Shown here piece after piece: positions 10,199 through 37,505 of a stretch of DNA of 64,000 bases. The notes beneath the pieces were generated by a model. That model worked only from the letters and a program-made list of their open reading frames with translations. It was not told the DNA's origin and searched no databases. The DNA is from an uncultured Aquimarina sp. (lineage in GTDB: Bacteria > Bacteroidota > Bacteroidia > Flavobacteriales > Flavobacteriaceae). The first letter of the stretch is position 1. Each line of letters begins with the position of its first letter. The stretch is from contig CANLMN010000004.1 in assembly GCA_947492105.1 (NCBI GenBank), forward strand, positions 113,894 to 177,893. The letters run 5' to 3'. The position numbers and the translations under genes were made by a program.

Positions 10199-10204
10199 TA
10201 CGTT

Positions 10205-14200: not shown

Positions 14201-14441
14201 AATGGGGATTATGGAAGCCATGCCTTCTCCTAATAAAGAAAAAGGCTTTGAATGGATGCCGGACCAATTATATGTAGAAAATTTGACTTCGGTTAAAGGC
14301 GCAGAATTAGATGAAGCACATAAACTATTTTTAGAAAATTATGGAGCCATGAATGACAAAAATCGAGCCTTGACAGAAGCTGGATGGTTTAGTGAAGAAC
14401 AACGAAATGAATTTGCAACCATTAAACGGAGAGGAAACTAA
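11271..14441 (+). CDS. catalase-like domain fused to a LodA/GoxA-family (CTQ-dependent) amino-acid oxidase domain
   Basis: The N-terminal region (about residues 55-360) shows RRPVFLRTHGIIEG...VYVRYSS...IGIGIKIF...VIWDEKEALPVKVATI...ARVRVYQASADYRR, the pattern of catalase-related heme proteins. From about residue 405, ITNVRIHPGIGIARVGNS..EYYIGPE is the LodA N-terminal signature. The C-terminal part has FCLADAFHPGAELTWP and WMAVPWQGDTAFC. Confidence 0.75.
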   Translation: MKSLYNDKEREDGKKDRDLAPKDAKYYNTTCDCKDPIDCLEHMFCTMTQERRVVMEGQCPARRPVFLRTHGIIEGEITILENDNLSKDYKQGIFKKPSKHPVYVRYSSDLADGRPDWKSTIGIGIKIFNIDSTDPIEKDKKAKKTDTADLLLQNVPNFFVNTARDMCNFTKASFEGWGDEWIQDNAPNTNQLLGDMAKPIRSVFETSLWSVVPFKLGDGFCKYIVRPGTSTFFEEPDINDPDFLAKDLAGRMATGPATLDIYIQKRPTTTDGFSQTYIDEHFPLDRATVIWDEKEALPVKVATIKMKKQDITKKEQEIYGDWLAFNIGRTAEDNKPAPQSSVAQARVRVYQASADYRRKMNAQPIEEPTAPGKPEIKNPKCPFSGVKPQPPKEHPKALTQNQIDAITNVRIHPGIGIARVGNSTKEYYIGPEVSNPKPTPFGDTRDKTGAIKRQAARFRVYGYDKNGTIVAEIQQSKNTQIEWTVHVANKKSAWYEFNAAMDIPATVTLEVPLRNPDVKGNARAALAIDPGEKKIMGLEMNDSSYNLNGNFQGTPVLLGQLRTDSVGRLLFMPGFGVSASPANTPVFDPANPSTFNNPAGWYDDIADGPVRAKVTIGDKDFEADPAWVASAPPNYAPNIVGWRTMNDLLQNVYMSSGMLALPTRVSFQKHVKPILTRLSELQWVNKGFLSMFGAGAPMDFNDTTLLKKLAIAPVSMIYPDPNGELRRTIYNSFRAKDVKSVEEGAWPWIYGDAFGYTNPDPTVAPSASTYLQLPAFYDYVLSAWVKGDFISDYNPNENKHQTFDTIPLQEQPNVLDEANMHFCLADAFHPGAELTWPMRNASMYRAPYRIRMRAAGKDAPIYGSKLTTEEVIAMNGPLYDQGPGDLTRWMAVPWQGDTAFCRSGYDMEYDPYLPTFWPARVPNQVLTRIDYYTLMDKNKTDEERIAAFHNRPSWLRQLHGANPVAEQMIYMIEHFGEMGIMEAMPSPNKEKGFEWMPDQLYVENLTSVKGAELDEAHKLFLENYGAMNDKNRALTEAGWFSEEQRNEFATIKRRGN

Positions 14442-15586
14442 TGACAACACCACACTATGATGTTGTTATTGCTGGAGCAGGTCCTGCGGGATGTGCTGCT
14501 GCAATACGGTTACGCCAATTTGATATATCTGTATGCCTAATAGATGATGTTCAGGATAAGATATGGAAAATTGGCGAATCCCTTCCCGGAGCAGCCATCC
14601 GACTTCTAGATCGTTTGGGAATACAAAACCTAGATCAATTACTCACACCTAGAGAGTATGTAGCTTGTGTTGCGAATGTAGCTGCCTGGGGCACTAATGA
14701 CTGGACATACAACGATGCAATTAGAAACCCCCAAAGCGGAGGATGGCATATTTTGAGACATAGGTTTGATACTGCATTACGGCAATTAGCACTGCAAAAA
14801 GGTATTGCTTTTTATACTGCCAAAATTGGAAAAATAACACGGAATAATGTGGTAGAGACTACTACAAAAACTACTTATACAATAGCTTTCAAAACCAACA
14901 AAAAACAAGTCCCAAGAACCATCATATCACAATGGCTTATTGATGCCACAGGACGTTCTGGAGCAGTTCTAAAACAGCTAAATATTAAGCGTTGGCAATT
15001 TGAAGAACAGTTTTCTGCTTTTGCTTGGTTAAAACCAGATTCTACAAAAAACCTGACACAAACAACCCGTATCAAATCTGTAGAACACGGTTGGTGGTAT
15101 AGTGCTAAGTTACCAGATAACACTAGAATAATTGCTTTTTATGGACTGTCAAATAGGGTTTCTGATATGGTCAAATCTTCAGAATTTTTTATAGCCGAAG
15201 CTAATAGAAGTACTCTTTTAGAAGATTCCATTGTTCAGGAAGCTATTCTAGAAGGCGTTGCTGCTTGTAATGCATCGACCTCTTTGGCCCAAGAAGTTAC
15301 TGGAGCATCTTGGCTAGCTATTGGTGATGCTGCATTCTCGTTGGATCCCATTTCTTCTCAAGGGATCTTTTTTGCCCTATACAGTGGTATAAAAGGTGCC
15401 GAAACGATAGCTACCTCTCTAGGAAAAAACTCTAATACCGCACAAACACTTGCACTCTACAAAGAACAGATTAAAAATGTATTCCTTGCGAATCAAAATT
15501 CAAGAACACATTTTTATACCTCAGAATTACGTTACACAACACAAGTTTATTGGAAACAATATCATCAACGCTCAAAAATCATATAA
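14441..15586 (+). CDS. LodB-like FAD-dependent oxidoreductase (putative CTQ-maturation flavoprotein)
   Basis: GxGxxG dinucleotide fold in YDVVIAGAGPAGCAAA. The ATG overlaps the upstream TAA by 1 nt (TAATG). Position matches the lodAB-type gene pair. Confidence 0.75.
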   Translation: MTTPHYDVVIAGAGPAGCAAAIRLRQFDISVCLIDDVQDKIWKIGESLPGAAIRLLDRLGIQNLDQLLTPREYVACVANVAAWGTNDWTYNDAIRNPQSGGWHILRHRFDTALRQLALQKGIAFYTAKIGKITRNNVVETTTKTTYTIAFKTNKKQVPRTIISQWLIDATGRSGAVLKQLNIKRWQFEEQFSAFAWLKPDSTKNLTQTTRIKSVEHGWWYSAKLPDNTRIIAFYGLSNRVSDMVKSSEFFIAEANRSTLLEDSIVQEAILEGVAACNASTSLAQEVTGASWLAIGDAAFSLDPISSQGIFFALYSGIKGAETIATSLGKNSNTAQTLALYKEQIKNVFLANQNSRTHFYTSELRYTTQVYWKQYHQRSKII

Positions 15587-15872
15587 ACTACCAAAGTGAT
15601 TTAAATTTGTTGATGTGGTTTTGTGGTCGTATGACATCTAAAAAAAAACATAAATCATTTCTTGTACTACCATCGACCTCTGTAGCACTCCATATCATAT
15701 CAAAATTATAGAAGTGTGATCAAAAAAGCCAAAAACGATATCTCCCCAAAACTTAACGATTCCTTAGGACAAAAACTTCTTCAAGATTTTGTAATTTGTC
15801 ACTCTGGGATGATTTCTCTCCTCACAATAATTAAGAAGGAATTACTTAGTTTTTTTAGTAAAACCAAATACC

Positions 15873-17153
15873 ATGTCATTAGTACAACAAAACAAATCAA
15901 CAGAGTTCATTGCTTTAGAAAATCAATATGGAGCTCATAATTACCATCCACTACCTGTAGTTCTGAATAAAGGAGAAGGTGTCTATGTCTGGGATGTAGA
16001 AGATAATCGCTACTATGATTTCTTAAGTGCATATTCAGCCGTCAATCAAGGACATTGTCATCCAAAGATTATCAATGCAATGTTAGAACAAGCAAAAACA
16101 CTCACACTCACTTCTCGAGCCTTTTATAACGATCAATTGGGACAGTATGAAAAATATGCAACAACCTACTTTGGATTTGACAAATTACTCCCCATGAATA
16201 CGGGTGCAGAAGCGGTAGAAACCGCTATCAAGATCTGTCGAAAATGGGCATATGAGAAAAAAGGAATTCCAGAAACAGCTGCACAAATCATTGTGTGTGA
16301 TAATAACTTTCATGGACGGACCACCACCATTATTTCTTTTTCTAATGATGAGGATGCTCGGAAGAACTTTGGCCCCTATACTCCTGGTTTTATCAAAATT
16401 CCTTATGATGATATCCCTGCACTCCAAGATGCACTAGAGAAAAACCCAAATGTAGCTGGTTTTTTGGTAGAACCTATTCAAGGAGAAGCTGGAGTGTATA
16501 CTCCTCAACCTGATTTTTTGGCAAAAGCAAAAGATTTGTGTAACAAGAATAATGTATTATTTATTGCAGATGAGATTCAAACTGGGATTGCGCGTACAGG
16601 ATCCTTATTAGCGGTATGTGGTAATTGTACATGTTCGGGTCACTGTGAACAACAAAAAACATATTCCCAACCCGATATTTTGATTTTGGGCAAAGCACTC
16701 TCTGGCGGTGCATATCCCGTTAGTGCAGTATTGGCTGATAACAAAATTATGGAAGTGATACAACCAGGACAACATGGCTCTACCTTTGGCGGTAATCCTA
16801 TTGCCTCGGCAGTAGCTATAGCTGCACTAGAAGTAGTGAAAGAAGAAGGTCTGACACTGAATGCACGAAAAATGGGTAATTACTTCAGAGAAAAACTTTC
16901 TGAATATATCAAAAACTCTAGTATAGTATCACAAGTCCGTGGCAAAGGTTTACTTAATGCTATAGTAATTAACGATACCCCGGATAGTAGTACAGCATGG
17001 GATATATGTGTGGCCCTGAAAGAAAACGGGCTTCTTGCCAAACCCACGCATGGGAATATTATCCGTTTTGCTCCTCCACTTGTGATCAACCAAGAACAAC
17101 TGGATGCTTGTATTGCTATAATAACAATGACACTAAAAGATTTTGAAAAATAG
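15873..17153 (+). CDS. rocD: ornithine--oxo-acid aminotransferase
   Basis: Class-III aminotransferase with typical OAT blocks: NYHPLPVVLNKGEGVYVWDVE, LSAYSAVNQGHCHPKI, DEIQTGIARTG, GKALSGG, HGSTFGGNP. Confidence 0.9.
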   Translation: MSLVQQNKSTEFIALENQYGAHNYHPLPVVLNKGEGVYVWDVEDNRYYDFLSAYSAVNQGHCHPKIINAMLEQAKTLTLTSRAFYNDQLGQYEKYATTYFGFDKLLPMNTGAEAVETAIKICRKWAYEKKGIPETAAQIIVCDNNFHGRTTTIISFSNDEDARKNFGPYTPGFIKIPYDDIPALQDALEKNPNVAGFLVEPIQGEAGVYTPQPDFLAKAKDLCNKNNVLFIADEIQTGIARTGSLLAVCGNCTCSGHCEQQKTYSQPDILILGKALSGGAYPVSAVLADNKIMEVIQPGQHGSTFGGNPIASAVAIAALEVVKEEGLTLNARKMGNYFREKLSEYIKNSSIVSQVRGKGLLNAIVINDTPDSSTAWDICVALKENGLLAKPTHGNIIRFAPPLVINQEQLDACIAIITMTLKDFEK

Positions 17154-17508
17154 ATTCAATATTGAAATCTTATATAACTAAAAATAATATAATGAATTAC
17201 ACCTGCTACCTAGAACAACAATTTAGGTATATTAATTGGTATATTAATTCCTATTATAGACAACGGGATGCTATGACATAGTCTTTAATTAGTGCTGTTG
17301 TTATTTAAAAAAGAATTAATAATCATTAAGTTATAAAATAAGGAGGAAGCATTTGATTACCTATATACAACACACTACTTCAAAACCTTCCTCCTTAAGT
17401 ATAGCTTTTTGAACTTAAAATTTTTGGTCAGAGTACAGCTGTATGGGAATTAAAAAATACCTTAATGGGCGCATACTATTGTTGTTAAAATTCCATTACT
17501 CTTAAGCA

Positions 17509-17646
17509 GATCTAATTTAGGTATATAAACTCGTATTAGTGACACTGCTATTTTTTTGTGTAAAAACACCGTGATACTATTGCATAGCCTTAGCTATGGA
17601 ATACATGAACAAGGGGGTATGCGACATTATATAGCTAATTTGAGAT
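17509..17646. repeat. family-C MITE-like repeat
   Basis: CTAATTTAGGTATATAAACTCGTATTAGTGACAC...CACCGTGATACTATTGCATAGCCTTAGCTATGG...ATATAGCTAATTTG is colinear with 39815-39971 in reverse orientation. Confidence 0.75.
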
Positions 17647-17660
17647 AAGATAGAACCATA

Positions 17661-17778
17661 ATACTAGTTAAAATGTAATTGTCGACTAAAATAGTTGAAC
17701 TATTTTTCGCTAGTTTGAGCTAAAAAACAGTAGAAAAAGAACCGAATTATTAGCCTGGAATTATTTTTTAAATGATAT
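17661..17778. repeat. family-B repeat with the centre deleted
   Basis: ATACTAGTTAAAATGTAATTGTCGACTAAAATAGTTGAACTATTTTTCGCTAGTTTGAGCT joins directly to AAAAAACAGTAGAAAAAGAACCGAATTATTAGCCTGGAATTATTTTTTAAATGATAT. Confidence 0.75.
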
Positions 17779-18073
17779 GAAAAACAAAAACGTAATCTCG
17801 GGAAATTAAATATTTCTAATTTGGTGGAAGTTTACGCATAAATACTGACGTCATACAGAAGGAAGCTTAGCAGGAGTTAAGTAACGAATTGTTATGATAC
17901 CTACCGCACTACATACTTTACCTCTGCGACTTTTTGAATTGTTCGTTTTGTAAGAAAAACGTACTGGATGCGAATTTTTAGAACTAAATCCGTGAGAATT
18001 ACACCTTCTTCTATTTTTTGATTAAAGAACTCTACCACCATTCTAGCGATTTCATAATCACTAATATCCGTTT

Positions 18074-18538
18074 TTATTTAATTCGTTTTTTAATAAGTAT
18101 TATTTGTCCAAGATGATAATACGTGTGTTCAATCATTGCGTCAATATTCCGGCAATAAGTCCCGTATTGTTTATCTACAAAGTCCGATATCATTTTTTCT
18201 TCTGACATCTTTTTAACAAGTTCAATAAATTCTTCCGAGTCAAGGCAAAACTTATTCACTAAATTTTGCCAATCTTGTTCAGATTGTATCGGTGGATAAT
18301 CAAAACTATATTTGTCTCGTATATCAAGTGTTCCTCCTTCGAGAACTTTTTTTACTCCAGCTATATAATAATCAATATGAAAAGTCAAATCAGCAATAGT
18401 GTTAAAGTCATCTATTCTTTGAGTTGCTTGTTTCCAATCAAGATTAATTATTTGTTCTTTGAAATTTGTTCCTAAAACCCATTCTCCTTCAATAAAAATT
18501 TCCTTCAGTCGGTTGGCTAAATATTCGTTTAATTTCAT
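18074..18538 (-). CDS. DinB-superfamily (DUF1572-like) protein
   Basis: Size and pattern fit a four-helix-bundle DinB-like protein (FHIDYY..., IEHTYYHLGQI). Confidence 0.6.
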   Translation of the reverse strand: MKLNEYLANRLKEIFIEGEWVLGTNFKEQIINLDWKQATQRIDDFNTIADLTFHIDYYIAGVKKVLEGGTLDIRDKYSFDYPPIQSEQDWQNLVNKFCLDSEEFIELVKKMSEEKMISDFVDKQYGTYCRNIDAMIEHTYYHLGQIILIKKRIK

Positions 18539-18776
18539 TTTATGTTAACCTTTATATTTTTTGGCAGTTTTATCAAATGGCTTACAATATTTTGGCGTCA
18601 AGTACAGACAATATTTTTTTGTACTGCATAGCGGTACAATGAGTTAAAAAAAGACAAAAATTGTGTTATAAAACTTAAAACCGCTTCAATATCCAAAAAA
18701 AACTATAAAAAACGATTCCTAGCTACAATTATGCTTTAAATAGCATATTTTGCTATTATACTCCTGCCGAATACTG

Positions 18777-19172
18777 TTAAGATGGCGCTAATAATACATA
18801 TGGATACATTTCGATATTTCTAAGTATCCAGAAAATCACAATAAAAATCAAGGTAACAATAGGTGTATACGGATGATAGAGATAATTGTAGTATTCTTTT
18901 TGAGTATACTTGTTCACTATCGTTATCACTATATTATAACTTACGACTAGCAGTCCCACTAAGAATAATATATTATATTTGAGTACACCGACAAAGTCAA
19001 AATGCAATAGTTGATGTAAGGCTCTTTGACTACCACATCCGGGACAATATAAACCTGTAACTTCATGAAACGGACATTTAGGAAAAAAATGGGATTCCAT
19101 GGGGTCAAATAAAAAATATAGAGACGCTATTATCATTAATAACATCCCTATAAATATTTTCTTTTTTGACAT
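18777..19172 (-). CDS. DUF2752 membrane protein
   Basis: CPFHEVTGLYCPGCGSQRA motif plus TM helices. Confidence 0.8.
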   Translation of the reverse strand: MSKKKIFIGMLLMIIASLYFLFDPMESHFFPKCPFHEVTGLYCPGCGSQRALHQLLHFDFVGVLKYNILFLVGLLVVSYNIVITIVNKYTQKEYYNYLYHPYTPIVTLIFIVIFWILRNIEMYPYVLLAPS

Positions 19173-19177
19173 ACTAA

Positions 19178-19453
19178 TTAAAACGAACTAGCGATTATCC
19201 CGGCAAAAACAGCTACGTTAATAATTATATAGATGACAACGGCAACAATCCCCGTAATCCCACCTATTAAAGTCCATTTTTTTGCATCCGCAGAAGCACG
19301 AACAGCTTCTTCATAATTCCCCAAATCATAGGCAGAATTTACTTTTGAGGCATGTATAATACCAACAATCCCCAAGGGTAAACAACAAAAAATTGTTACC
19401 AGAATTGATTCTACTAAATAGTTTTTAGGTTTTGGTTGATTACTACTATTCAT
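19178..19453 (-). CDS. CD225/dispanin-family small membrane protein
   Basis: PKNYLVESILVTIFCCLPLGIVGIIHASKV followed by a second TM helix. Commonly paired with DUF2752. Confidence 0.8.
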   Translation of the reverse strand: MNSSNQPKPKNYLVESILVTIFCCLPLGIVGIIHASKVNSAYDLGNYEEAVRASADAKKWTLIGGITGIVAVVIYIIINVAVFAGIIASSF

Positions 19454-19534
19454 AAATTTCTATAAAAATTAACTGATGATACTTTTGATCTATATGATGG
19501 TATTTACTAGACTCCTATTGTATTGTGAACTATT

Positions 19535-19676
19535 ATACCTTAAAAAAAATTAAAGGCTCATAATTAGCGTCTTTTTCTACTATTTTTTCACTATAACATT
19601 AAACCAGAGCCACGGTTATGCTTAAATTTCATAGTTCAAGTTATTTGAGTCTATAATTACATGTTAACTGGAGTAT
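19535..19676. repeat. family-B MITE-like repeat
   Basis: ATACCTTAAAAAAAATTAAAGGCTCATAATTAGCG...CAGAGCCACGGTTATGC...ACATGTTAACTGGAGTAT. Confidence 0.75.
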
Positions 19677-19690
19677 CTTGACTTTTTATT

Positions 19691-19790
19691 TTCTCTAAAA
19701 AAACAGATCAAATTCGTCTATATTTCGATACTTTGCTCAATCTAAGTGCTGCCATAAATTTTAAAAGCCTTTCTCTGGCCAAATTTTATC
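19691..19790. repeat. family-E short repeat (second copy at 25586)
   Basis: TTCTCTAAAAAAACAGATCAAATTCGTCTATATTTCG...AAATTTTATC aligns with 25586-25687. Both copies abut an A or B element. Confidence 0.4.
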
Positions 19791-19922
19791 CCATTTTCAA
19801 TCAAAAACAAAAAGTCCTGATGAATTTTACTAAAATAGTTTAAATATTTTCTACGAATTTAAAAAAGTTTAAACTACTTCGATAAGTTCATTCTTATCTT
19901 TGTTCCACAAAAATACAGATTA

Positions 19923-20480
19923 ATGGTTCAAAAAGGTGATAAAGTTGCAGTTGTTGACGATGATATTTCGGGAATTGTCATAAGTACCGAGGATGATATT
20001 ATTGTAATCGAAGATCAAAATGGTTTCGAAATGAGATTTCATCGATCAGAAGTAGTACAAATTTTAAATGAAGATCTCTTGTATCAAACTCCAGAAAACA
20101 TGCAGCAAATCCTGGAAGAAAAAGAACGACCCAAGAAGCGCACTCTAATCCGTGATACAAAAAAAGAGCGACAACATCCACCTATGGAGGTAGATTTGCA
20201 TATTGATAAACTTATCAAACATTACAAAGAACTATCCAATTATGAAATACTTGATATACAGTTAGAAACTGCAAAACGGCAATTAGCATTTGCTATCCGC
20301 AAACGTATTCAAAGAGTAATCTTTATACACGGTGTCGGAGCTGGAGTTCTAAAAAGTGAATTAGAATATCACTTTCAAAAATATGATGGCATCAAAATTA
20401 CTGATGGTGACTATAAAAAATATGGTCTAGGTGCCATGGAAATTTACATTCCACAATATGTTACCGAATTGGAATATTAA
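19923..20480 (+). CDS. Smr-domain protein
   Basis: C-terminal Smr pattern MEVDLHIDKL...RVIFIHGVGAGVLKSEL. Confidence 0.8.
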   Translation: MVQKGDKVAVVDDDISGIVISTEDDIIVIEDQNGFEMRFHRSEVVQILNEDLLYQTPENMQQILEEKERPKKRTLIRDTKKERQHPPMEVDLHIDKLIKHYKELSNYEILDIQLETAKRQLAFAIRKRIQRVIFIHGVGAGVLKSELEYHFQKYDGIKITDGDYKKYGLGAMEIYIPQYVTELEY

Positions 20481-29684: not shown

Positions 29685-31514
29685 ATGAACTACTTTAAAC
29701 AAATTTTGAGTTACGCAAAGCCTTATAAGTTTTATGGAGGCATGAATATTTTGTGTAATATTTTTTACGCATTTTTTAACGCTATAGCCATGCTTTCTCT
29801 ATGGCCCGTGATTAATGTTTTATTCGGTAGCACAGAAAAAAACTATATAAAACCGGTTTGGAAAGGGCTATTTGAACTTAAAGATTACGGAACAGATTAT
29901 CTCAATTATTTTGTTACTAGACAAGAAGAATTAGCAGAGGGTAGCTCACTCACTTATGTAGTTATTACTATCATTTCCATGTTTTTGCTAAAAAATGCAT
30001 TCAGTTATTTGGCTAATTATTTCATTACTTTTTTACGTAATGGGGTGCTTCGAGATTTGCGAAATGATGTGTACGACAAAACCATAAGACTTCCCTTGTC
30101 TCACTTTTCTGAAAAAAGAAAAGGCGACACCATCTCTAGAATTTCGGGTGATGTTAACGCCATACAAACATCTTTTTTGGCAGTATTAGAGCTTATCATC
30201 AAAGAACCGCTCACCATTGTTTCTTTTATCATAATGATGTTCGGAATTAGTGTCAAACTCACAGTATTTGTTTTCATTTTTATTCCAGTTTCGGGTTTCT
30301 TTATCTCCCTACTAGGGAAAAAATTAAAAAAACATTCGGATAAGGTCATGAAAGAACAAGGATTCTTCTTTTCTATTGTAGAAGAGACCTTGGGTGGACT
30401 AAAAGTAATCAAAGGATTTACGGCAGAAATGCTATTTAATAAGAAGTTTCAAGAATCTACTTCTCGATTCTACAAACACTCCAACAACCTTGCTAATAGA
30501 CAAAACTTAGCATCACCCATAAGTGAGTTTCTTGGCATTAGTGTTATCGCTGTTATTTTGTGGTATGGCGGCAGAATGGTATTAATCGAAGGCTCTTTGG
30601 ATCCGGGGTTATTTATAACCTACATGGGGTTCTCCTACTCGATATTAACACCTGCAAAAGCAATAAGTAAAGCCTCTTACAGTATCAAAAGTGCCAATGC
30701 CTCGGCAGAACGTGTCTTAGAGCTCCTGAACACAGAATCTGCCTTGAAAGATCGTCCAAATGCACAAACCAAGCAAACATTTACTTCCAACATCACCCTA
30801 GAAAATGTATCCTTCAAGTATGACACCGACTATGTGTTACAAAACTTCAACTTAGAGGTTCTTAAAGGAAAAACAGTAGCACTTGTTGGACAGTCTGGAA
30901 GTGGAAAATCTACTATTGCCAATTTGGTTACCCGCTTTTATGATATCAACAAAGGAACTATCAAAATAGATGGTACCGATATTCGCGATCTTACCAAAAA
31001 TTCCTTACGCTCCATGATGGGTTTAGTGACACAGGACTCTATCTTATTCAATGACACCATTAAGAATAATCTTCTCATCGGAAAAGAAAATGCTACAGAG
31101 GAAGAAATTTTGGATGCACTCAAAATTGCCAATGCCTGGGAGTTCGTTAAAGAACTACCCCAAGGAATAGAAACCAACATTGGAGATAGCGGTAATAAAT
31201 TAAGTGGTGGCCAGAAACAAAGACTATCCATCGCAAGAGCTGTCCTTAAAAACCCACCTATCATGATCCTCGACGAAGCTACATCTGCTTTGGATACAGA
31301 AAGTGAACGGTTGGTACAATCTGCTCTAGAAAATATGATGAAAAATCGCACTAGTATTGTAATAGCACATCGCTTATCTACCATTCAAAACGCAGATTTG
31401 ATCGTTGTCATGAAAAAAGGACGCATCATAGAACAAGGAACACATGGAGAATTACTGGCCAAAAATGGTTCCTACCAGAAATTAGTCAATATGCAATCTT
31501 TAGAAAACGCATAA
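29685..31514 (+). CDS. ABC transporter, fused permease/ATP-binding protein (MsbA-like exporter)
   Basis: Six-TM domain, then Walker A GQSGSGKST, signature LSGGQKQR, Walker B ILDEATSALD. Confidence 0.9.
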   Translation: MNYFKQILSYAKPYKFYGGMNILCNIFYAFFNAIAMLSLWPVINVLFGSTEKNYIKPVWKGLFELKDYGTDYLNYFVTRQEELAEGSSLTYVVITIISMFLLKNAFSYLANYFITFLRNGVLRDLRNDVYDKTIRLPLSHFSEKRKGDTISRISGDVNAIQTSFLAVLELIIKEPLTIVSFIIMMFGISVKLTVFVFIFIPVSGFFISLLGKKLKKHSDKVMKEQGFFFSIVEETLGGLKVIKGFTAEMLFNKKFQESTSRFYKHSNNLANRQNLASPISEFLGISVIAVILWYGGRMVLIEGSLDPGLFITYMGFSYSILTPAKAISKASYSIKSANASAERVLELLNTESALKDRPNAQTKQTFTSNITLENVSFKYDTDYVLQNFNLEVLKGKTVALVGQSGSGKSTIANLVTRFYDINKGTIKIDGTDIRDLTKNSLRSMMGLVTQDSILFNDTIKNNLLIGKENATEEEILDALKIANAWEFVKELPQGIETNIGDSGNKLSGGQKQRLSIARAVLKNPPIMILDEATSALDTESERLVQSALENMMKNRTSIVIAHRLSTIQNADLIVVMKKGRIIEQGTHGELLAKNGSYQKLVNMQSLENA

Positions 31515-31683
31515 AAATTGTAGCCAAGGTTTTGTTTTTCTTCTCGTATTTTTTAGAAACCAATCCTTAATTTTAGATGATGGATGATGGATGAAATCCC
31601 CCTTCATCTTTCTACAAATTGAAGCGGTCTAAAAAAGACATTCTTAGATTACTAAAAAAATATACATTTGGACCAAAGATACA

Positions 31684-31768
31684 TGATACAATTATAGGCT
31701 AGTAATTCACTTCTATTACTACTATTTTTTCACTAAACAACGAAACTGTAGCCACGGCTATGTCTAAG
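31684..31768. repeat. family-B repeat, half copy ending at its hairpin tip
   Basis: ATTATAGGCTAGTAATTCACTTCTATTACTACTATTTTTTCACTAAACAACGAAACTGTAGCCACGGCTATG. Confidence 0.6.
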
Positions 31769-31928
31769 ACTATGTATCCTTTGAATTTACTGAGATAAAA
31801 TTTTCTTTTTTCGGCTCAGCTTCGGCATAAAAACAAACCGTACTAAGCCTATGCTTAATTTTTCTGCTGAAGCTGAAACAAAAAAATCTTAATCTCTCTT
31901 TCCGGTAAGTTCAAACAACAAATGGTAT
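31769..31928. repeat. family-A MITE-like repeat
   Basis: ACTATGTATCCTTTGAATTTACTGAGATAAAATTTTCTTTTTTCGGCTCAGCTTCGGC...TTCCGGTAAGTTCAAACAACAAATGGTAT. Confidence 0.8.
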
Positions 31929-32048
31929 AAATTCATATTCATAACACTGTCATTTTTTAATGTAAATACACCGTGATGCTATTGCATAGCCCTTAGCTAT
32001 GAAATATAAAACAAGTCAATATGCGACACTATATAGTCAATTTGGCAT
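31929..32048. repeat. family-C repeat, truncated and internally deleted
   Basis: ...ACACCGTGATGCTATTGCATAGCCCTTAGCTATG...GCGACACTATATAGTCAATTTGGCAT. Confidence 0.65.
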
Positions 32049-32152
32049 AAGAATATACACGATAGAGAAAATCTAGAAAAAGTGATGTAAAAGACACATT
32101 GAGACACTACCGTCTACGTACTTGAGAGTATCTATTTAAAAACCGATACTAT

Positions 32153-32280
32153 TAAAAGCAAACAAGCACCCCGAAGGGTGCTTGTTCTCACACAAATCAT
32201 TTTAATTTAGGGGTTAATCTAAAATTAAAACTCAAACTATAAACTTTATACGAATACCATAACTTTATTACGGTATTTAA
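32153..32280 (-). ncRNA. tandem small-RNA unit 1 (most divergent copy)
   Basis: -7 box TATATTTG (plus-strand caaatata, 32286-32293). Hairpin ATACC/GGTAT. Core ...TTTTAGATTAACCCCTAAATTAAAATGATTTGTGTG. Terminator AACAAGCACCC-ttcg-GGGTGCTTGTT followed by a T-rich tail. Confidence 0.55.
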
Positions 32281-33153
32281 TACTACAAATATACGGTCTT
32301 TTTTGAGTCTCACAAATTTTTTTCTCATTTTTTATCGAAAAAAAAAAGAGGCTTTCAATAAATAATCAAATAACTCACTACTAAACAGTTATTTAACGCT
32401 TGCTATTTCTACAGGTTTTACCCTATTCCCTGTAAGTTTAACCTATAAGATATTGTCTATAAGGAAGTCATAACAATCGGTAGGCCTTGTCTTTCAAAAT
32501 AACATATTTGAAATATGTTTATGCTGTCACGAATAAACACAATAGCGTACAAATTATATAAAAAACACATTTATGTATTCATATATTGTATAGACAGAAG
32601 GAATTAAGAAAACTTTATACTTCAAATAGGAAACCAACAAAAAGCTAATTCCTAGTAAAAATACTACAACTTAGACACATAATTAGTTGAATTGTTTTTA
32701 CATAATATAATTATGGTTACTACACCTATCACAAATATAATTCCTATATCAGAATTTCCATAACAGATCAAACATCTTACATTCGAACACCTTTAGAAAC
32801 ATTACAATATACTAACTCCAAAACATCATGAGTCTATGATCTAAACTCATTAATACACCATAGTATTACACTACTCCACATCAAAAAAGATGTTCAGAAC
32901 TCAATTACTATGTAACGCAAAATCTTCCACTCTATTATTTAAACAGTTGATTAATAAGTAAACCAATTAAAATACTTGAATAAGTAAAACTTCATCTCAA
33001 AAAAATAATTATTAGATTTTGACCCTTTTGTTATTGCGACGATAAAACAAGAATCTTCTCGTTTTCATGAAGAAAAAAACATAGAAATACCACTAATTGA
33101 TTGGAATAATCTGAAATCACTAAAAGGACACAAGCCTAATTAATTTTGCAATA

Positions 33154-33297
33154 CAAAAAACGCCCAACTGATATGAAGGGCGTCCAAACACAAATCATTT
33201 TAAATCTAGAGGTTAATCTAAATCAAAAAAACACTAACTAAAACTTTTAAATCATAATCGTCTTGGGGAGGACGTCTATCATTCATCAGCATTATTA
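33154..33297 (-). ncRNA. tandem small-RNA unit 2
   Basis: -7 box TATATTTG (33303-33310). 5' hairpin GACG-UCCUCCCCAA-GACG region. Conserved core ATTATGATTTAAAAGTTTTAGTTAGTGTTTTTTTGATTTAGATTAACCTCTAGATTTAAAATGATTTGTGTTTG. Terminator ACGCCC-N12-GGGCGT plus T6. Confidence 0.65.
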
Positions 33298-33348
33298 CTA
33301 TCACAAATATACTACAAAATTCCAAACCACCTACAAAATTAACACTAT

Positions 33349-33378
33349 TTATCTATAAAATACGTTTTTTATAGATAA
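33349..33378. promoter_or_regulatory. palindromic operator-like site upstream of unit 2
   Basis: TTATCTATAAAA-tacgtt-TTTTATAGATAA, perfect 12-bp arms (TTATCT-N18-AGATAA frame), 38 bp upstream of the -7 box. Confidence 0.55.
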
Positions 33379-33645
33379 TCTAACAGTTATCATTCAGCTC
33401 CAAAACCCAATTATTTAGACAAAAAATAAAACTAACTGAATAAAACATAAAATATAAGATACTGATATAAAGAAAATTATATTACAAAAAACTAACTATT
33501 TGTACTTACAATAGAGTTTAAAAAGGCGAACAGAACACATTACAATTAGACAATATCCTACAAACCTAAAACATTCTAAAAAAAGTACCATAAATTAATC
33601 ATTCAATTTGTATTTGAATGCTACAATTTTTAGAAATAGTTCAAA

Positions 33646-33787
33646 ATAAAAAACACTCTACCTAAAAGGTAGAGTGTTCAAACACAAATCATTTTAAATT
33701 TAGAGGTCAATCTAAATCAAAAAAACACTAACTAAAACTTTTAAATCATAATTGCCTAAGGCAGACACTTATCATTCATCAGTATTC
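33646..33787 (-). ncRNA. tandem small-RNA unit 3
   Basis: -7 box TATATTTG (33793-33800). Hairpin TGCC-tta-GGCA. Same core as unit 2. Terminator AACACTCTACC-ttta-GGTAGAGTGTT plus T6. Confidence 0.65.
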
Positions 33788-34195
33788 TACTACAAATATA
33801 ACATATTCTTGGACTAAACAGCAATAAAAATCATTTTATCTTGAAAAAAAGTATTTAATCGAATACAAAAAACTATTGAATCCATACTATCAAAAGAAAA
33901 ATACATCATTTTACCTCATACTTAGACGCAGCGCAATTACATGTTTCACTTCATTAAAAAAATTTCTTATCGGCTATAAACTTTAATAGAGTTACCCAAC
34001 TATGAGTTCGTAATAAAATATTAGACCAAAGCACTTAGAGAACTTCAAAAAAGACTTATATGTAATAAAACAAGACACACTTAACCGAAGTAATTAATCT
34101 TTTGTGGATTTTAGACTTTTAGAGACTTAAAACAAACTACCTGTTTACATTTACAGAAAACAGCCACATGCACACACCTTATTTCTTGGTATTAC

Positions 34196-34336
34196 CAAAA
34201 AAAACGCCCAACCAGAAGGAAGGGCGTTCAAACACAAATCATTTTAAATTTAGAGGTCAATCTAAATCAAAAAACACTAACTAAAACTTTTAAAATAATA
34301 CTTGCCGTAAGAGGCATGTATTATTTGTAAGTAGTA
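34196..34336 (-). ncRNA. tandem small-RNA unit 4
   Basis: -7 box TATATTTG (34342-34349). Hairpin ATACATGCC-tcttac-GGCAAGTAT. Same core. Terminator AACGCCC-N12-GGGCGTT plus T8. Confidence 0.65.
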
Positions 34337-34386
34337 CACTGCAAATATATCAAAATATTATGGTAAACAAAAAATAATACAGTTTT

Positions 34387-34416
34387 TTATCTTAAAAAAA
34401 TGCGCTTCACAGATAA
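34387..34416. promoter_or_regulatory. palindromic operator-like site upstream of unit 4
   Basis: TTATCT-N18-AGATAA, 37 bp upstream of the -7 box. Confidence 0.5.
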
Positions 34417-34832
34417 AAATCATGATAAATATCTAATAATCAGGGTTTAACAATAAAAACACATTACCCTATTATTAGTACAGTAAAACCATAATCAACA
34501 AATACCCGTATAATTCAAATAAACTATCAGAAAAGCATCTTAGAATTACAGAATATTCGCTTCTAAACATCGAACTAATTCTTCAAAAAAGCATGGATAC
34601 TTACTTCTAATCATATTTACCAAATAGAAATGAATATCAATCTAAGGATATACTTCTCTATTTCGACTGGAGTATATTAAATTCTATGTCCAAAAGAATT
34701 TAATCCTACAAATATGTTATTTATAGATCAAATATCTCTCCTGCATTTGGTAAGATCTTACTTTCAGAATCTTTTTTAGAACTATTTGATTCAATACTCT
34801 GACAAATAGAAAAAATAGTATTAGGTTTTACT

Positions 34833-34974
34833 ACAAAAAAACGCCCTACCTTATAGTAGAGCGTTCAAACACAAATCATCTTAAATTTAGGGGTTAATCT
34901 AAATCAAAAAAACACTAACTAAAACTCTAAATCATAATCGTCTTGGGGAAAACGTGTATCATTTGTAAGTATTA
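34833..34974 (-). ncRNA. tandem small-RNA unit 5
   Basis: -7 box TATATTTA (34980-34987). Hairpin CGT-tttccccaag-ACG. Same core. Terminator AACGCTCTAC-tataag-GTAGGGCGTT plus T7. Confidence 0.6.
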
Positions 34975-35014
34975 TAACGTAAATATACTACAATATCTTA
35001 AACAAACAAACATT

Positions 35015-35044
35015 TAATCTGTATTTTATGCATTTTATAGATAA
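35015..35044. promoter_or_regulatory. palindromic operator-like site upstream of unit 5
   Basis: TAATCT-N18-AGATAA, 27 bp upstream of the -7 box. Confidence 0.45.
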
Positions 35045-35140
35045 AAAATATTACTACAACCACTATATTTAGCTTTCTACTTTTCCAAAAAAGAGACTTC
35101 TCTATCTATTATTTTATACAAAAACTTAAAATAAGTAAAT

Positions 35141-35283
35141 ACAAAAAACGCTCTACCAATAAGTAGAGCGCTCAAACACAAATCATCTTAAATTTAGAAG
35201 CTAATCTAAATCAAAAAAAACACTAACTAAAACTTTTAAACTATAATTGCCTCGGGGAAAAGACAATTATAACGTAAGTATTA
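35141..35283 (-). ncRNA. tandem small-RNA unit 6
   Basis: -7 box TATATTTG (35289-35296). Hairpin TTGTC-ttttccccga-GGCAA. Core with loop variant TTAGCT. Terminator CGCTCTAC-ttattg-GTAGAGCG plus T6. Confidence 0.65.
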
Positions 35284-35321
35284 TAAGACAAATATAATAA
35301 AAAAAACCAAATAAAAACACT

Positions 35322-35351
35322 TTATCTTAAAAAAATGTCTTTAATAGATAA
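35322..35351. promoter_or_regulatory. palindromic operator-like site upstream of unit 6
   Basis: TTATCT-N18-AGATAA, 25 bp upstream of the -7 box. Confidence 0.5.
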
Positions 35352-35461
35352 AAAAAAGATACTGCTTACTTTTCGTGCTACTACGTATTTGTCGTCATAT
35401 TTTCTATGACAAATAGTATAATACTAAATAAATCAAAGAGTCTATGTATTCATAAATCATC

Positions 35462-35600
35462 AAAAAAAACTCTATTTATCAATAGAACATCCAACTACAA
35501 ATCATACAAAGCTTAGGAGATAATCTATAGCAAAAAACACTTACTAAAACTCTAAAATTACATTTATAACAGAAACCACAATTATATATTTGTAAGTATT
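35462..35600 (-). ncRNA. degenerate seventh unit (possible pseudo-copy)
   Basis: Recognisable but eroded core (GTTTTAGTAAGTGTTTTTTGCTATAGATTATCTCCTAAGCTTTGTATGATTTGTAGTTGG). Weak terminator TCTATT/AATAGA plus T8. No clear -7 box. Confidence 0.35.
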
Positions 35601-35837
35601 ATGTAATATTAGTAGTACAAAAAAATCATGAAACATCACTTCAACTATATAAAATACACTTTAAAGAATTATTATTTGATTTTTTCTTACATAATATTTC
35701 AAATAATATCATTTGAGCTGATAACGCAACCTTTATATCAATTAACGAGTTATATCGTTACGTCATAACTCTTTTTTCTATCTCTTTTTCTAATCTAAAC
35801 AGCTCAACAGTGTTATCATGTCCCTTTTTTCAGTATC

Positions 35838-36413
35838 TTGATTTTAATTTTTTCTAATTATCGTTATTTGAGTAGTCAAGAAGAAGAGGCGCTTATTGCA
35901 GCCTTACAATCCGAAAAACATGTAAATGAAGCTTTCAAAAAGCTCATTACGCTTTACAAAGAGCGTTTGTATTGGCATATACGATACATAACGAAAAATC
36001 ATGCTGATGCCGATGATGTGCTACAGAATGTTTTCATTAAAGTTTATAAGAATATAAAAAAATTTAAAGGAGATAGTAAATTATACTCTTGGTTATATCG
36101 TATCGCCACCAATGAAAGTTTGTCTTTTTTACAGCAAAAAGCAAAAAAGCAAAACATTAGTGATGGTGAACTACAGGAACAACTCATTCATAACCTCAAA
36201 GCAGATATCTATTATGATGGTGATGAAATACAATACAAATTAGAACAAGCTATTGCCACACTTCCATTTAAACAACAACAGGTTTTTATGCTCAAATACT
36301 ATCAAGAATTAAAATATCAAGAAATCTCAGAACTCTTAGGCACTAGCGAAGGTGCTCTCAAAGCCTCTTATCATCTAGCGGTCAAAAAAATTCAAAAATT
36401 TTTAAAAGAGTAA
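35838..36413 (+). CDS. ECF-type RNA polymerase sigma-70 family factor
   Basis: Region 2 (DADDVLQNVFIKVYKNIKKFKGDSKLYSWLYRIATNESLSFL) and region 4 (LPFKQQQVFMLKYYQELKYQEISELLGTSEGALKASYHLAVKKI). No ATG is available. Start is TTG at 35838 or the in-frame TTG at 35868. Confidence 0.85.
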   Translation: MILIFSNYRYLSSQEEEALIAALQSEKHVNEAFKKLITLYKERLYWHIRYITKNHADADDVLQNVFIKVYKNIKKFKGDSKLYSWLYRIATNESLSFLQQKAKKQNISDGELQEQLIHNLKADIYYDGDEIQYKLEQAIATLPFKQQQVFMLKYYQELKYQEISELLGTSEGALKASYHLAVKKIQKFLKE

Positions 36414-36450
36414 TTAAACCTTTTAAACATTTATTGATCTTACCTATATA

Positions 36451-36981
36451 ATGAAACAAAAATCACCACATACTAATAGAGGTTATAAAGTGCCGGATGA
36501 TTATTTTGCTAATGTCGAAAGCTCTTTTTTTGATACTATCAAAAACTCGGATCCAAAAGAACATGCTATACTTGACCATCCAAATCCCTCAGCCTACAAG
36601 GTACCCGACTCCTATTTTGAAGATCTAGAGGATCGCATACTAAAGAGAGTTCCTCCAACTAAAACTGAGGTAATCCCTTTATTTTCCAGAAAAAAACTTA
36701 TCTATACTACCATATCTATAGCTGCATTATTTGTATTAATACTATCCATTTATAAACAAAGTAATACCGCAAATAGTGACACAATCAATTTGATAGAGAC
36801 TGCATATCTACAAGACTATATAGACAATGGAGAATTAGAATTATCTCTTTTTGAAGTTGAAGACATTTTATTAGACCAAAATATCGATATTAGTGCAATA
36901 GATTCTGATGCCCTACAAGAAGAATCCTTATATCAATATCTAGAAGATCACATAGAAACAGAATATATATTAACAGAATAA
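36451..36981 (+). CDS. single-pass membrane protein, putative anti-sigma factor
   Basis: Operon position after the ECF sigma gene. One TM helix (LIYTTISIAALFVLILSIY). Internal duplication YKVPDDYFANVES / YKVPDSYFEDLED. Confidence 0.55.
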   Translation: MKQKSPHTNRGYKVPDDYFANVESSFFDTIKNSDPKEHAILDHPNPSAYKVPDSYFEDLEDRILKRVPPTKTEVIPLFSRKKLIYTTISIAALFVLILSIYKQSNTANSDTINLIETAYLQDYIDNGELELSLFEVEDILLDQNIDISAIDSDALQEESLYQYLEDHIETEYILTE

Positions 36982-36983
36982 TT

Positions 36984-37505
36984 ATGATTAAAAATAACAT
37001 ACTACTACCCCATAGAATTTTAGTAATACTACTTGTTTGCATATCTATCAATGCAATAGGCCAAAAAAGAGGTAATGAAAAGATAAAAGCCTTGAAAATT
37101 GCTCATATCACTCAGGAATTAAACCTAACTTCGGAAGAAGCGCAAAACTTCTGGCCAATTTATAATGCGCATATTACGACTATGAATGCCCTAAGAAAGA
37201 AAGAAAAGACTACCGTTTCTTCTGACATGCAACTTCTTGGAAGACTTACTGAAAAAGAAGCAACTACTGTTTTACAAGAATTACAAGATATCAAAAAACG
37301 AAGATTTGAAGCCAAAGAACAACTGATAGCAGATCTTGGCAAAGTAATATCAAATAAAAAAATAGTCTTACTCTCCCGAGCTGAGGATAATTTCAAGCAT
37401 ACCTTATTAAGACAATATGGTGATCAAAAAAAGATGATCGACCTACGAAGGAAAGCAATAGAAGAACGAAGGAAAGCGAAATTAGATGCTAAGATGAATA
37501 ATTAA
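36984..37505 (+). CDS. periplasmic Spy/CpxP-like helical protein (ECF-associated sensor type)
   Basis: Signal peptide, LTSEEAQNFWPIYNAH motif, Lys/Glu-rich helical remainder. Start is 3 nt after the upstream stop. Confidence 0.55.
   Translation: MIKNNILLPHRILVILLVCISINAIGQKRGNEKIKALKIAHITQELNLTSEEAQNFWPIYNAHITTMNALRKKEKTTVSSDMQLLGRLTEKEATTVLQELQDIKKRRFEAKEQLIADLGKVISNKKIVLLSRAEDNFKHTLLRQYGDQKKMIDLRRKAIEERRKAKLDAKMNN

Follow-up and report, generated by a model that had tools for sequence, protein, structure and literature searches.

In a 64,000-nucleotide stretch of DNA from an uncultured Aquimarina sp. (assembly GCA_947492105.1, contig CANLMN010000004.1, positions 113,894 to 177,893; the whole stretch is called the window hereafter), the protein-free gap between the gene of an ABC exporter and that of an extracytoplasmic function (ECF) sigma factor carries a tandem array of seven minus-strand units with the anatomy of small RNA (sRNA) genes. 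We favour, at a probability of about 0.65, a reading in which the array is the tandem expansion of an ancestral sRNA gene, and in which its co-regulated products act in trans as siblings that pair with their targets through C-rich loops. The family is undescribed, yet of a known kind, that of multicopy base-pairing sRNAs. An earlier note, made from the sequence alone, had read the region as a tandem array of individually promoted and terminated minus-strand non-coding RNA (ncRNA) genes, and both sequence-level and comparative tests support this reading.

The gap spans 4.3 kb between the exporter stop (31514) and the start of the sigma gene (35838). As the earlier note had claimed, it is free of open reading frames (ORFs) of 60 amino acids (aa) or more, the longest in any frame having 46 aa, and the seven minus-strand units that it had placed there were all recovered at their positions, with lengths of 128–145 nt each. 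A repeat search returned direct-repeat families of 5–6 copies with start-to-start spacings of 998, 494, 550, 637, 307 and 319 bp, and direct-repeat analysis found similarity in the units and their promoters only. The 19-mer GTTTTAGTTAGTGTTTTTT occurs 6 times against 0.28 expected, and terminator-like sites number 5, with 1.1 expected. We built a covariance model from the seven window units (R1), which yielded exactly seven matches on the 64-kb window, all of them on the minus strand (E 3e-28 to 2e-16). Read 5′ to 3′, a unit consists of a short unpaired 5′ segment such as AAUACUUACAAAU, hairpin 1, the AU-rich linker AAAAGUUUUAGUUAGUGUUUUUUU, hairpin 2, the single-stranded motif AUGAUUUGUGU and a GC-rich terminator with a U-run. 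The array looks like six intact genes (u1–u6) plus one degenerate copy (u7):

31515..35837, no strand assigned: intergenic gap with the array, delimited by ORF scan and synteny

32154..32281, minus strand: u1, predicted sRNA of ~128 nt (R1 match 32155-32290, 105 bits, E 8e-18; fold z -5.3); hairpin 1 AUACCGUAAU..AUUAUGGUAU without CCCC; hairpin 2 loop AUUAACCCC at 32206-32223; AUGAUUUGUGU at 32190-32200; terminator AACAAGCACCC-UUCG-GGGUGCUUGUU

33155..33299, minus strand: u2, predicted sRNA of ~145 nt (R1 match 33153-33302, 151 bits); hairpin 1 loop CUCCCCAA with CCCC at 33265-33268; hairpin 2 at 33205-33222; AUGAUUUGUGU at 33188-33198; terminator GACGCCC..GGGCGU

33648..33788, minus strand: u3, predicted sRNA of ~141 nt (R1 match 33646-33795, 146 bits; fold z -5.35); hairpin 1 UGCC-UUA-GGCA without CCCC; hairpin 2 loop UUGACCUC at 33699-33716; AUGAUUUGUGU at 33682-33692; terminator AACACUCUACC/GGUAGAGUGUU

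34197..34337, minus strand: u4, predicted sRNA of ~141 nt (R1 match 34197-34344, 148 bits; fold z -5.36); long hairpin 1 AAUAAUAC-a-UGCC..GGCA-a-GUAUUAUU; hairpin 2 at 34249-34266; AUGAUUUGUGU at 34232-34242; terminator ACGCCC..GGGCGU

34835..34975, minus strand: u5, predicted sRNA of ~141 nt (R1 match 34834-34982, 157 bits); hairpin 1 loop UUUUCCCCAAG with CCCC at 34945-34948; hairpin 2 loop AUUAACCCC at 34886-34903; AUGAUUUGUGU at 34869-34879; terminator CGCUCUAC/GUAGGGCG, including one U-G pair

35143..35284, minus strand: u6, predicted sRNA of ~142 nt (R1 match 35141-35291, 141 bits; fold z -5.39); hairpin 1 UAUAAUUGUC-UUUUCCCCGAG-GCAAUUAUA with CCCC at 35254-35257; hairpin 2 loop UUAGCUUC at 35193-35210; AUGAUUUGUGU at 35176-35186; terminator GCGCUCUAC/GUAGAGCGU

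35462..35604, minus strand: u7, diverged copy (R1 match 35460-35609, 98 bits; fold z -0.13)

All seven units are present in six other assemblies of the same species, obtained from different samples, and six units are present in a seventh assembly in which the locus is cut short. Because same-species assemblies from other samples carry the same units, the array is no assembly artefact.

Compared with shuffled sequence, u1–u6 fold with z-scores of -2.5 to -5.4, whereas u7 folds no better than its controls. The minus-strand polarity is fixed, because several pairs are of the G-U type and would turn into A-C mismatches if read from the plus strand, and because U-runs trail the stems only on the minus strand. 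The terminator stems vary in a compensatory way, as had been proposed: seven pairs still pair after changes on both sides. Hairpin 2 consists of a UUUAG/CUAAA stem and a C-rich loop (AUUAACCUC, AUUAACCCC, UUAGCUUC or UAUCUCC) and shows one compensatory change, A-U to C-G, in u7. Hairpin 1 had been described as different in every copy; this is true of the stems, but the C-rich loop is kept (CUCCCCAA in u2, UUUUCCCCAAG in u5, UUUUCCCCGAG in u6). Across 19 units from the window and other genomes (at least five taxa), the hairpin 1 loop contains CCCC in 14, and the stems comprise four unrelated sequences (CGUC/GACG, UUGUC/GCAA, UUUCAU/AUGAAA and UUGUUAG/CUAACAA). The loop motif YCCCCAAG of hairpin 1 is the most widely conserved element of the RNA, and a constant loop on a varying stem is the pattern expected for a presented recognition motif. 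The second C-rich loop (hairpin 2, AACCYC) and the invariant AUGAUUUGUGU define what we call the long form. AUGAUUUGUGU is identical in 11 of 12 aligned long-form copies from three taxa, the remaining one being u7 with AUGAUUUGUAG, and in four metagenome copies. All 11 nt are invariant across genera, would-be wobble positions included, a pattern in keeping with constraint on the RNA rather than on a coding sequence.

We compared seven same-species assemblies, the window and six others. The units (982 nt) contain 9 polymorphic events and the spacers (3341 nt) 76, a 2.5-fold lower density in the units (Fisher p = 0.006). Those within units lie in u7, in a U-run or in terminator loops, or turn an A-U pair of a hairpin 1 stem into G-U; in this last way the single-nucleotide polymorphism (SNP) at 35268 in u6 preserves its pair. 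The core of u1–u6 is free of strain polymorphism except for one U-run indel. Two spacer indels between strains were recorded in passing, a 7-bp GATGATA insertion at 31582, where a CATCCATCATCCATCATC repeat directly follows the ABC exporter gene, and a 14-bp deletion at 32443-32456 in one assembly.

At the level of sequence each copy appears autonomous, having a promoter and an intrinsic terminator of its own. The -7 box assigned to the units earlier stood up to inspection, with TATATTTG in u1, u2, u3, u4 and u6, TATATTTA in u5 and none in u7. A -7 box of the form TAnnTTT[GA] is found in 6 of the 7 window units and in all homologs, mostly with a TTG (-33) 18–19 bp upstream, and the promoters are thus predicted to be of the housekeeping type of Bacteroidota (-33 TTG, -7 TAnnTTTG). 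The promoter regions comprise:

32286..32360, minus strand: u1 promoter, -7 box TATATTTG at 32286-32293, proximal box TTCGATAAAAAATGAG at 32324-32339, distal box weak

33304..33377, minus strand: u2 promoter with boxes at 33304-33311 (-7), 33341-33356 (proximal, ATAGATAAATAGTGTT) and 33362-33377 (distal, TATCTATAAAAAACGT)

33793..33864, minus strand: u3 promoter with boxes at 33793-33800 (-7), 33828-33843 (proximal, CAAGATAAAATGATTT) and 33849-33864 (distal, ATTCGATTAAATACTT)

34342..34415, minus strand: u4 promoter with boxes at 34342-34349 (-7), 34379-34394 (proximal, TAAGATAAAAAACTGT) and 34400-34415 (distal, TATCTGTGAAGCGCAT)

34980..35043, minus strand: u5 promoter with boxes at 34980-34987 (-7, TATATTTA), 35007-35022 (proximal, ACAGATTAAATGTTTG) and 35028-35043 (distal, TATCTATAAAATGCAT)

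35289..35350, minus strand: u6 promoter with boxes at 35289-35296 (-7), 35314-35329 (proximal, TAAGATAAAGTGTTTT) and 35335-35350 (distal, TATCTATTAAAGACAT)

Upstream of the -7 box, a GA[TC][ATG]A[AC] hexamer is present in 18 of 18 promoter-bearing units, those of other genera included. It starts 40–43 bp before the -7 box, with the exception of u5 and u6 (30–32 bp), where the boxes lie ~10 bp, or one helical turn, nearer to it than in u1–u4, and of the Aquimarina copy Aq_2 (62 bp). In most of the 18 units a second, similar box follows 21 bp further upstream, such that the two form a direct repeat, about GATAAAATGCAT, with the consensus TATCGATAAAAAGCAT for the distal and TTAGATAAAATGCATA for the proximal box. 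Within the window, the paired-box arrangement scores positive at the sRNA promoters only. The spacers, which had been taken as mutually unrelated, are hence not wholly so, since each contains the conserved upstream boxes. The shared boxes point therefore to one common transcription factor that would switch all copies. This regulator may be a response regulator, which we propose because response regulators commonly bind direct repeats; a repeat period of 21 bp is characteristic of those belonging to the OmpR/PhoB or LytTR families. In Streptococcus, the sibling csRNAs are controlled by the response regulator CiaR, which binds a direct repeat upstream of each gene.

The window also encodes, at 8468-10948 on the plus strand, a TPR histidine kinase (HATPase_c only) paired with a LytTR response regulator. 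LytTR regulators bind direct repeats ~21 bp apart, which is the geometry of the sRNA boxes, and no evidence ties this pair to the array.

Reading the sequences of relatives, we observed a conserved motif resembling an ECF-type promoter, TTAAAC(C/T)-N16-GTCTAA, ahead of their sigma genes:

~8870-8910, plus strand: ECF-type motif in Formosa (locus L038)

~8700-8740, plus strand: ECF-type motif in Aquimarina (locus L039)

~8870-8910, plus strand: ECF-type motif in Bizionia (locus L040)

~4870-4905, plus strand: ECF-type motif in Hanstruepera (locus L044)

Its position suggests autoregulation of the sigma genes; the equivalent in the window is less clear. In the same sequences no such motif (TTAAACC-N16-GTCTAA-like) precedes the sRNA units, and because it is absent from their promoters the units are probably not ECF-dependent.

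The array lies between two gene blocks that allowed the locus to be followed into other genera:

29685..31514, plus strand: MsbA-like ABC exporter (Pfam ABC_membrane and ABC_tran), convergent with the array, a conserved anchor of the synteny

35838-36413, plus strand: ECF sigma factor of ~181–191 aa (Pfam Sigma70_r2/r4, extending to residue 187 of 191), without C-terminal extension

35838..37505, plus strand: operon divergent from the array, encoding the ECF sigma factor, a putative anti-sigma factor of 176 aa and a 173-aa sensor

Homologs of the 173-aa protein are named 'sensor of ECF-type sigma factor' or assigned to the Spy/CpxP family, and with this downstream protein as the anchor we found syntenic loci in other genera. 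The order DUF4199, GT2, PGM, ABC exporter, gap, ECF sigma, anti-sigma and sensor is shared by Formosa maritima, Aquimarina sp. M1 and Bizionia arctica; the fetched locus of Hanstruepera flava shows it from GT2 onward. The orthologous gap of Aquimarina sp. M1 is 680 bp long and holds two tandem, u1-like minus-strand units (R1 E 1.6e-9 and 2.9e-8); two or more homologous ncRNA genes thus occur in the window, with seven, and in this strain, with 2. The gaps of Formosa, Bizionia and Hanstruepera, ~280 bp in length, each hold one short unit composed of hairpin 1 and terminator, with the common promoter, a 5′ ACUUA and a UUGUUAG-(U/C)nCCCCAA(A/G)U-CUAACAA hairpin that is followed directly by the terminator. 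Homologous units with matching promoter architecture thus occupy the syntenic site in other genera. At the syntenic loci of Maribacter, Polaribacter and two further taxa we found no unit; the context is different there or the gap too short.

From the syntenic short units of other genera we conclude that the ancestral element was a short RNA whose hairpin bears a CCCC loop. Hairpin 2 and AUGAUUUGUGU are additions of the long form, and it is this form that the lineage of the window expanded to seven copies. Such an array had been called unusual for Flavobacteriia; this applies to the tandem multicopy state. The locus as such is shared by several genera of the Flavobacteriaceae, and the array is therefore an expansion of an existing sRNA locus and no one-off.

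We further scanned 185,579 species genomes with exact patterns and found one other carrier, a Flavobacteriaceae metagenome-assembled genome (MAG) that represents a second species of the window's lineage. Among the 27 loci returned, the only true matches were two (L017 and L019), both in this MAG, the others failing the covariance model. The MAG holds at least three copies, a u1 ortholog beside the ABC exporter and two copies beside the sigma gene, and its array is broken at contig ends. The core of the u1 ortholog is identical to that of u1, and its terminator stem has been rewritten by compensatory changes to ACAGACGCC/GGCGUCUGU; u1, the copy nearest to those of Aquimarina, is of the ancestral type. 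At the other end of the array, u7 is probably a decaying copy: it has no -7 box, its hairpin 2 loop reads UAUCUCC and its single-stranded motif AUGAUUUGUAG, the terminator stem is weak and AT-rich, two strain SNPs fall in it, and no counterpart adjoins the sigma gene in the second species.

A pattern scan of metagenomes gave 12 loci, of which 3 were true, all from one sample. This sample contains four Aquimarina-type units on three contigs in non-syntenic contexts, one by a tRNA gene, a tandem pair upstream of a lipoprotein-like ORF and one divergent from a beta-barrel-like ORF. Because these units sit in other contexts, the sRNA family can also be dispersed. In the last context (contig L048), the unit at 40-185 on the minus strand is divergent from a plus-strand operon at 398-1571 that encodes a 197-aa beta-barrel-like ORF followed by an ECF sigma-like ORF, and the repeated adjacency of sRNA and ECF sigma genes, here and in the window, may be meaningful. 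The scan of viral contigs returned 11 loci and no true match. The 19-base pattern also occurs in five Neomarinimicrobiota (L014, L015, L016, L027 and L028) and three Nostocaceae genomes (L011, L022 and L036), where none of the loci fits R1 and the recurrence is probably conserved lineage-specific sequence. The sigma ORF and the ABC exporter of the window, as well as protein P0022, had no match in exact-protein look-ups.

The units match no described RNA family, in agreement with the earlier note, which had recognised none. In a scan of the whole window against Rfam 15 at gathering thresholds, Flavo-1 included, no family reached its threshold in the array, and the only match was a DUF805 RNA outside it (6383-6451). 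With the limit relaxed to E ≤ 10 between 31300 and 36100, the best matches were csRNA (25.3 against a required 57 bits) and BTnc231 (19.9 against 80.4 bits). We regard the former as chance, because it lies on the opposite strand and scores 25.3 bits against a gathering threshold of 57 with E = 3.8; the latter covers mainly the terminator. The Aquimarina and Formosa loci, searched against Rfam 15 at E ≤ 10, likewise gave no match near threshold.

In the mechanism that we favour, the RNAs would act in trans by base pairing, with the exposed C-rich loops as candidate seeds for G-rich sites in target mRNAs, for which LhrC of Listeria and RsaE/RoxS would serve as models. Multiple copies would raise the dose and the speed of the response, and the copies with altered loops (u1, u3 and u4) could allow some diversification. 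The divergent orientation of the array to the ECF sigma/anti-sigma/Spy/CpxP-like operon suggests a possible link to the cell envelope.

Several observations weigh against this mechanism. Five units (u1, the u1 ortholog, u3, u4 and u7) have no CCCC in hairpin 1, and the near-identical 70-nt core could be the functional part instead, for example as a protein-binding platform. The family was found in few taxa only, with the proviso that exact patterns miss diverged relatives. When six sRNA segments were paired with 39 translation-initiation regions of the window by RNAduplex, nothing beat the shuffled controls, and the rare TTGGGG sites in the loci examined lie within coding regions. Bacteroidota mRNAs are generally without Shine-Dalgarno sequences, which leaves no obvious G-rich site of the kind that C-rich sRNAs usually target.

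Two pairings are recorded as side observations. The best RNAduplex pair joins the AU-rich linker to the 5′ untranslated region of a TonB-dependent receptor gene at 45333 on the plus strand (-16.8 kcal/mol; shuffled mean -9.6, standard deviation 2.3, z ~-3), a low-complexity A/U pairing and a weak lead. In rsmB, ACGTGATAAACGTTGGGGA, which is complementary to the CCCCAA loop, is identical in three genera (L038 11767, L040 20014 and L044 7703), ~113–134 nt into the coding sequence; its TTGGGG is not kept in the rsmB of the window.

The conserved core brings up an alternative in which the RNAs are protein-binding decoys or sponges of the CsrB/RsmZ kind. The C-rich loops and the 70-nt core would titrate an RNA-binding protein, for which an RRM-type RbpB-like or a cold-shock protein would be candidates, and copy number would set the titration capacity. 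In favour of such a role, the core, of which AUGAUUUGUGU and the AU-rich linker form part, shows much more conservation than a short seed would require; the role also agrees with the two similar C-rich apical loops of each long-form RNA and with the high gene dosage typical of sponge RNAs. In Bacteroidota, sponge RNAs are not known to bind through C-rich loops. The short form of Formosa, Bizionia and Hanstruepera, with one loop and no core, would make a poor sponge, and no candidate protein partner is linked to the locus. A precedent for the protein side is given by Bacteroides, in which the FopS and GibS sRNAs bind RbpB sequence-specifically (PMC11697453). On balance we consider this alternative unlikely.

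Somewhat less likely still, and offered as speculation, is an elaboration in which the C-rich loops (CCUCCCC, UUCCCCAAG, AACCYC) mimic an anti-Shine-Dalgarno sequence. In a phylum in which ribosomes mostly disregard such sequences, the co-induced dose from seven genes could specifically silence, or compete for, the few mRNAs whose leaders are still G-rich and Shine-Dalgarno-like, or else titrate a C-binding RNA protein. With either activity the RNAs would extend the envelope-stress circuit of the neighbouring ECF sigma factor to the post-transcriptional level, controlled by a dedicated regulator of the direct repeats. If true, such mimicry or titration would amount to a type of regulation so far undescribed in Bacteroidota and would provide a first handle on the sRNA biology of abundant marine Flavobacteriia.

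That the array is repeated DNA without RNA function, whether as decaying duplicates, remnants of mobile elements, a cluster of transcription-factor sites or terminators that insulate the flanking operons, appears improbable to us. The visible decay of u7, the confinement of the expansion to one lineage and the seemingly bidirectional terminators beside the ABC exporter in Formosa, Bizionia and Hanstruepera (A-run before the stem, U-run after it) would fit such DNA. Yet the units are more constrained than their spacers within the species, the stems covary under fixed loops and a fixed single-stranded motif, and the full architecture of promoter, RNA and terminator is kept across genera and in unrelated contexts. 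Mobile elements, miniature inverted-repeat transposable elements and repetitive extragenic palindromic repeats were considered and rejected, as the array shows neither terminal inverted repeats nor target-site duplications and the window gave no transposase-like Pfam match.

It is very improbable that the units encode very small peptides, either an 11-codon ORF, MI(H/D)V(F/L)PK(T/A)IMI, over hairpin 1 or an ORF that starts at the invariant AUG AUU UGU GU. A similar 11-codon ORF does occur in u2, in u5 and in both full copies of the second species, and the invariant AUGAUUUGU opens with a start codon, but the former is absent from u1, u4, u6 and u7, is replaced by an unrelated 9-codon ORF in u3, is reduced to 'MS*' in most Aquimarina-type copies and has no equivalent in Formosa and Bizionia. 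The second ORF, 'MICV', ends after 4 codons in u3–u6 and runs through the terminator in other copies, and the invariance of AUGAUUUGUGU at wobble positions fits a constraint on the RNA. Neither ORF is conserved across the family, as the earlier note had anticipated in denying a conserved reading frame.

The adjacent ECF sigma gene also raised the possibility of guide RNAs of an RNA-guided, dCas12f-sigmaE-like system, with the variable segment as the guide. The guide RNAs of dCas12f-sigmaE systems, known from Flavobacteriia and other Bacteroidota, can be tandem, are similar in sequence and are located beside an ECF sigma gene (PMC13472631), and they measure 85–105 nt with a 14–16-nt 3′ guide, the linked sigma factors lacking the anti-sigma/sensor pair (PMC13472631). 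The array directly adjoins an ECF sigma gene, the unrelated context of L048 again places a unit beside an ECF sigma-like ORF, and the Flavobacteriia systems include tandem guide RNAs of similar sequence (PMC13472631). The candidate was nevertheless rejected on gene content, sigma architecture and RNA anatomy and is scarcely credible: (i) no dcas12f or hth gene lies at the array, none of the 39 ORFs scanned against Pfam, out of 43 with at least 120 aa in the window (the other four overlap larger ORFs), has a TnpB/Cas12-like domain, the 64-kb window contains no Cas12f/TnpB/IscB-like ORF and the ORFs after the sigma gene measure 176 and 173 aa; (ii) the sigma factor is without a C-terminal extension and keeps its anti-sigma and sensor pair, as it does in relatives; and (iii) the array RNAs are predicted to measure 128–145 nt, end in a self-complementary terminator hairpin with a U-run rather than a 14–16-nt guide, conserve the loop of the 5′ hairpin instead of exposing a free guide and lie upstream of and divergent from the sigma gene, whereas guide RNAs lie immediately downstream of the dCas12f gene.

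Apart from the dCas12f-sigmaE guide RNAs, four known systems come closest to the array; of these, LhrC1-5 and FopS are the nearest analogues in function for the favoured reading of co-regulated sRNA siblings that pair through C-rich loops. In Listeria monocytogenes, most lhrC copies follow one another head to tail within a single intergenic region and have individual promoters and terminators. LhrC binds Hfq, a protein that is not known to occur in Bacteroidota. LhrC1-5 are multicopy, near-identical sRNAs of ~110 nt that require LisRK and respond to envelope stress (PMC4132741), and target recognition by LhrC uses three redundant C/U-rich sites, located in a hairpin loop, in a single-stranded stretch and in the terminator (PMC4132741). 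The array resembles this system in its C-rich apical loops, its shared direct-repeat element and its neighbours of the envelope-stress type (ECF sigma, anti-sigma and Spy/CpxP-like). It differs in phylum, shows no similarity to LhrC by sequence or covariance model and has no Rfam match, and the Shine-Dalgarno-like AG-rich sites that LhrC targets are rare in Bacteroidota.

Within the phylum, the FopS/GibS family of Bacteroides thetaiotaomicron comprises 14 paralogous sRNAs (12–15 per genome) with housekeeping-sigma promoters (PMC11697453). FopS probably answers to an additional stress-responsive regulator and represses mRNAs of outer-membrane transporters by base pairing (PMC11697453). Phylum, paralogy and housekeeping-type promoters are common to both families. 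The FopS genes, in contrast, measure 65–70 nt, are intergenic, antisense or derived from 3′ untranslated regions, and have not been described in a tandem array (PMC11697453), and the FopS seed is the 5′ end and is linked to RbpB (PMC11697453). No Bacteroides BTnc sRNA family in Rfam 15 matches the array units.

NsiR1 of heterocystous cyanobacteria is reportedly encoded in about a dozen direct repeats, each an sRNA gene with a regulated promoter and a terminator; this array is said to adjoin a developmental regulator gene and to be regular, spacer included. The spacers of the present array are, in contrast, irregular (307–998 bp) and, upstream boxes aside, unrelated to one another; the two arrays have no sequence relationship, the phylum is different, and the Rfam scans gave no NsiR1 match. 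With the csRNAs, RsaE and RoxS of Bacillota the units share C-rich or anti-Shine-Dalgarno-like seed candidates, the loops of u2 and of the L048 unit reading CCUCCCC. They have no homology to these RNAs, and the sequence and spacing of the direct repeat differ.

Next to nothing is known of sRNA regulation in Flavobacteriia, which are dominant marine degraders of polysaccharides, and the best-studied cases of the phylum come from gut Bacteroides. The locus offers a testable system, with an undescribed family, candidate seed motifs and a conserved operator that points to a single regulator. Because natural one-, two- and seven-copy variants exist, the evolution of gene dosage among sibling sRNAs can be studied, and cultured relatives that carry the locus make experiments feasible. 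The advance would be one of breadth rather than of concept, unless targets or partners prove unusual.

Other features of the window were noted alongside. The DUF805 RNA motif (RF03081) at 6383-6451 lies on the minus strand and scores 58.1 bits against a gathering threshold of 51.1; at a cutoff of 1e-5, Pfam gives no match for the ORF that follows downstream on the minus strand (5459-6079). At 11271-15586 on the plus strand, a LodA-like L-lysine epsilon-oxidase (1056 aa, LodA_N and LodA_C) is followed by a LodB-like flavoprotein with a tryptophan-halogenase/FAD-binding fold, and the pair may constitute a quinone-cofactor amino-acid oxidase that produces hydrogen peroxide. Gene content downstream of rsmB varies between strains (13040-20343 in assembly L001, 38810-43153 in the window): L001 carries a cNMP-binding regulator and molybdenum-cofactor genes, and the window and other assemblies carry in their place a GH8/CBM6 enzyme secreted by the type IX secretion system (T9SS).

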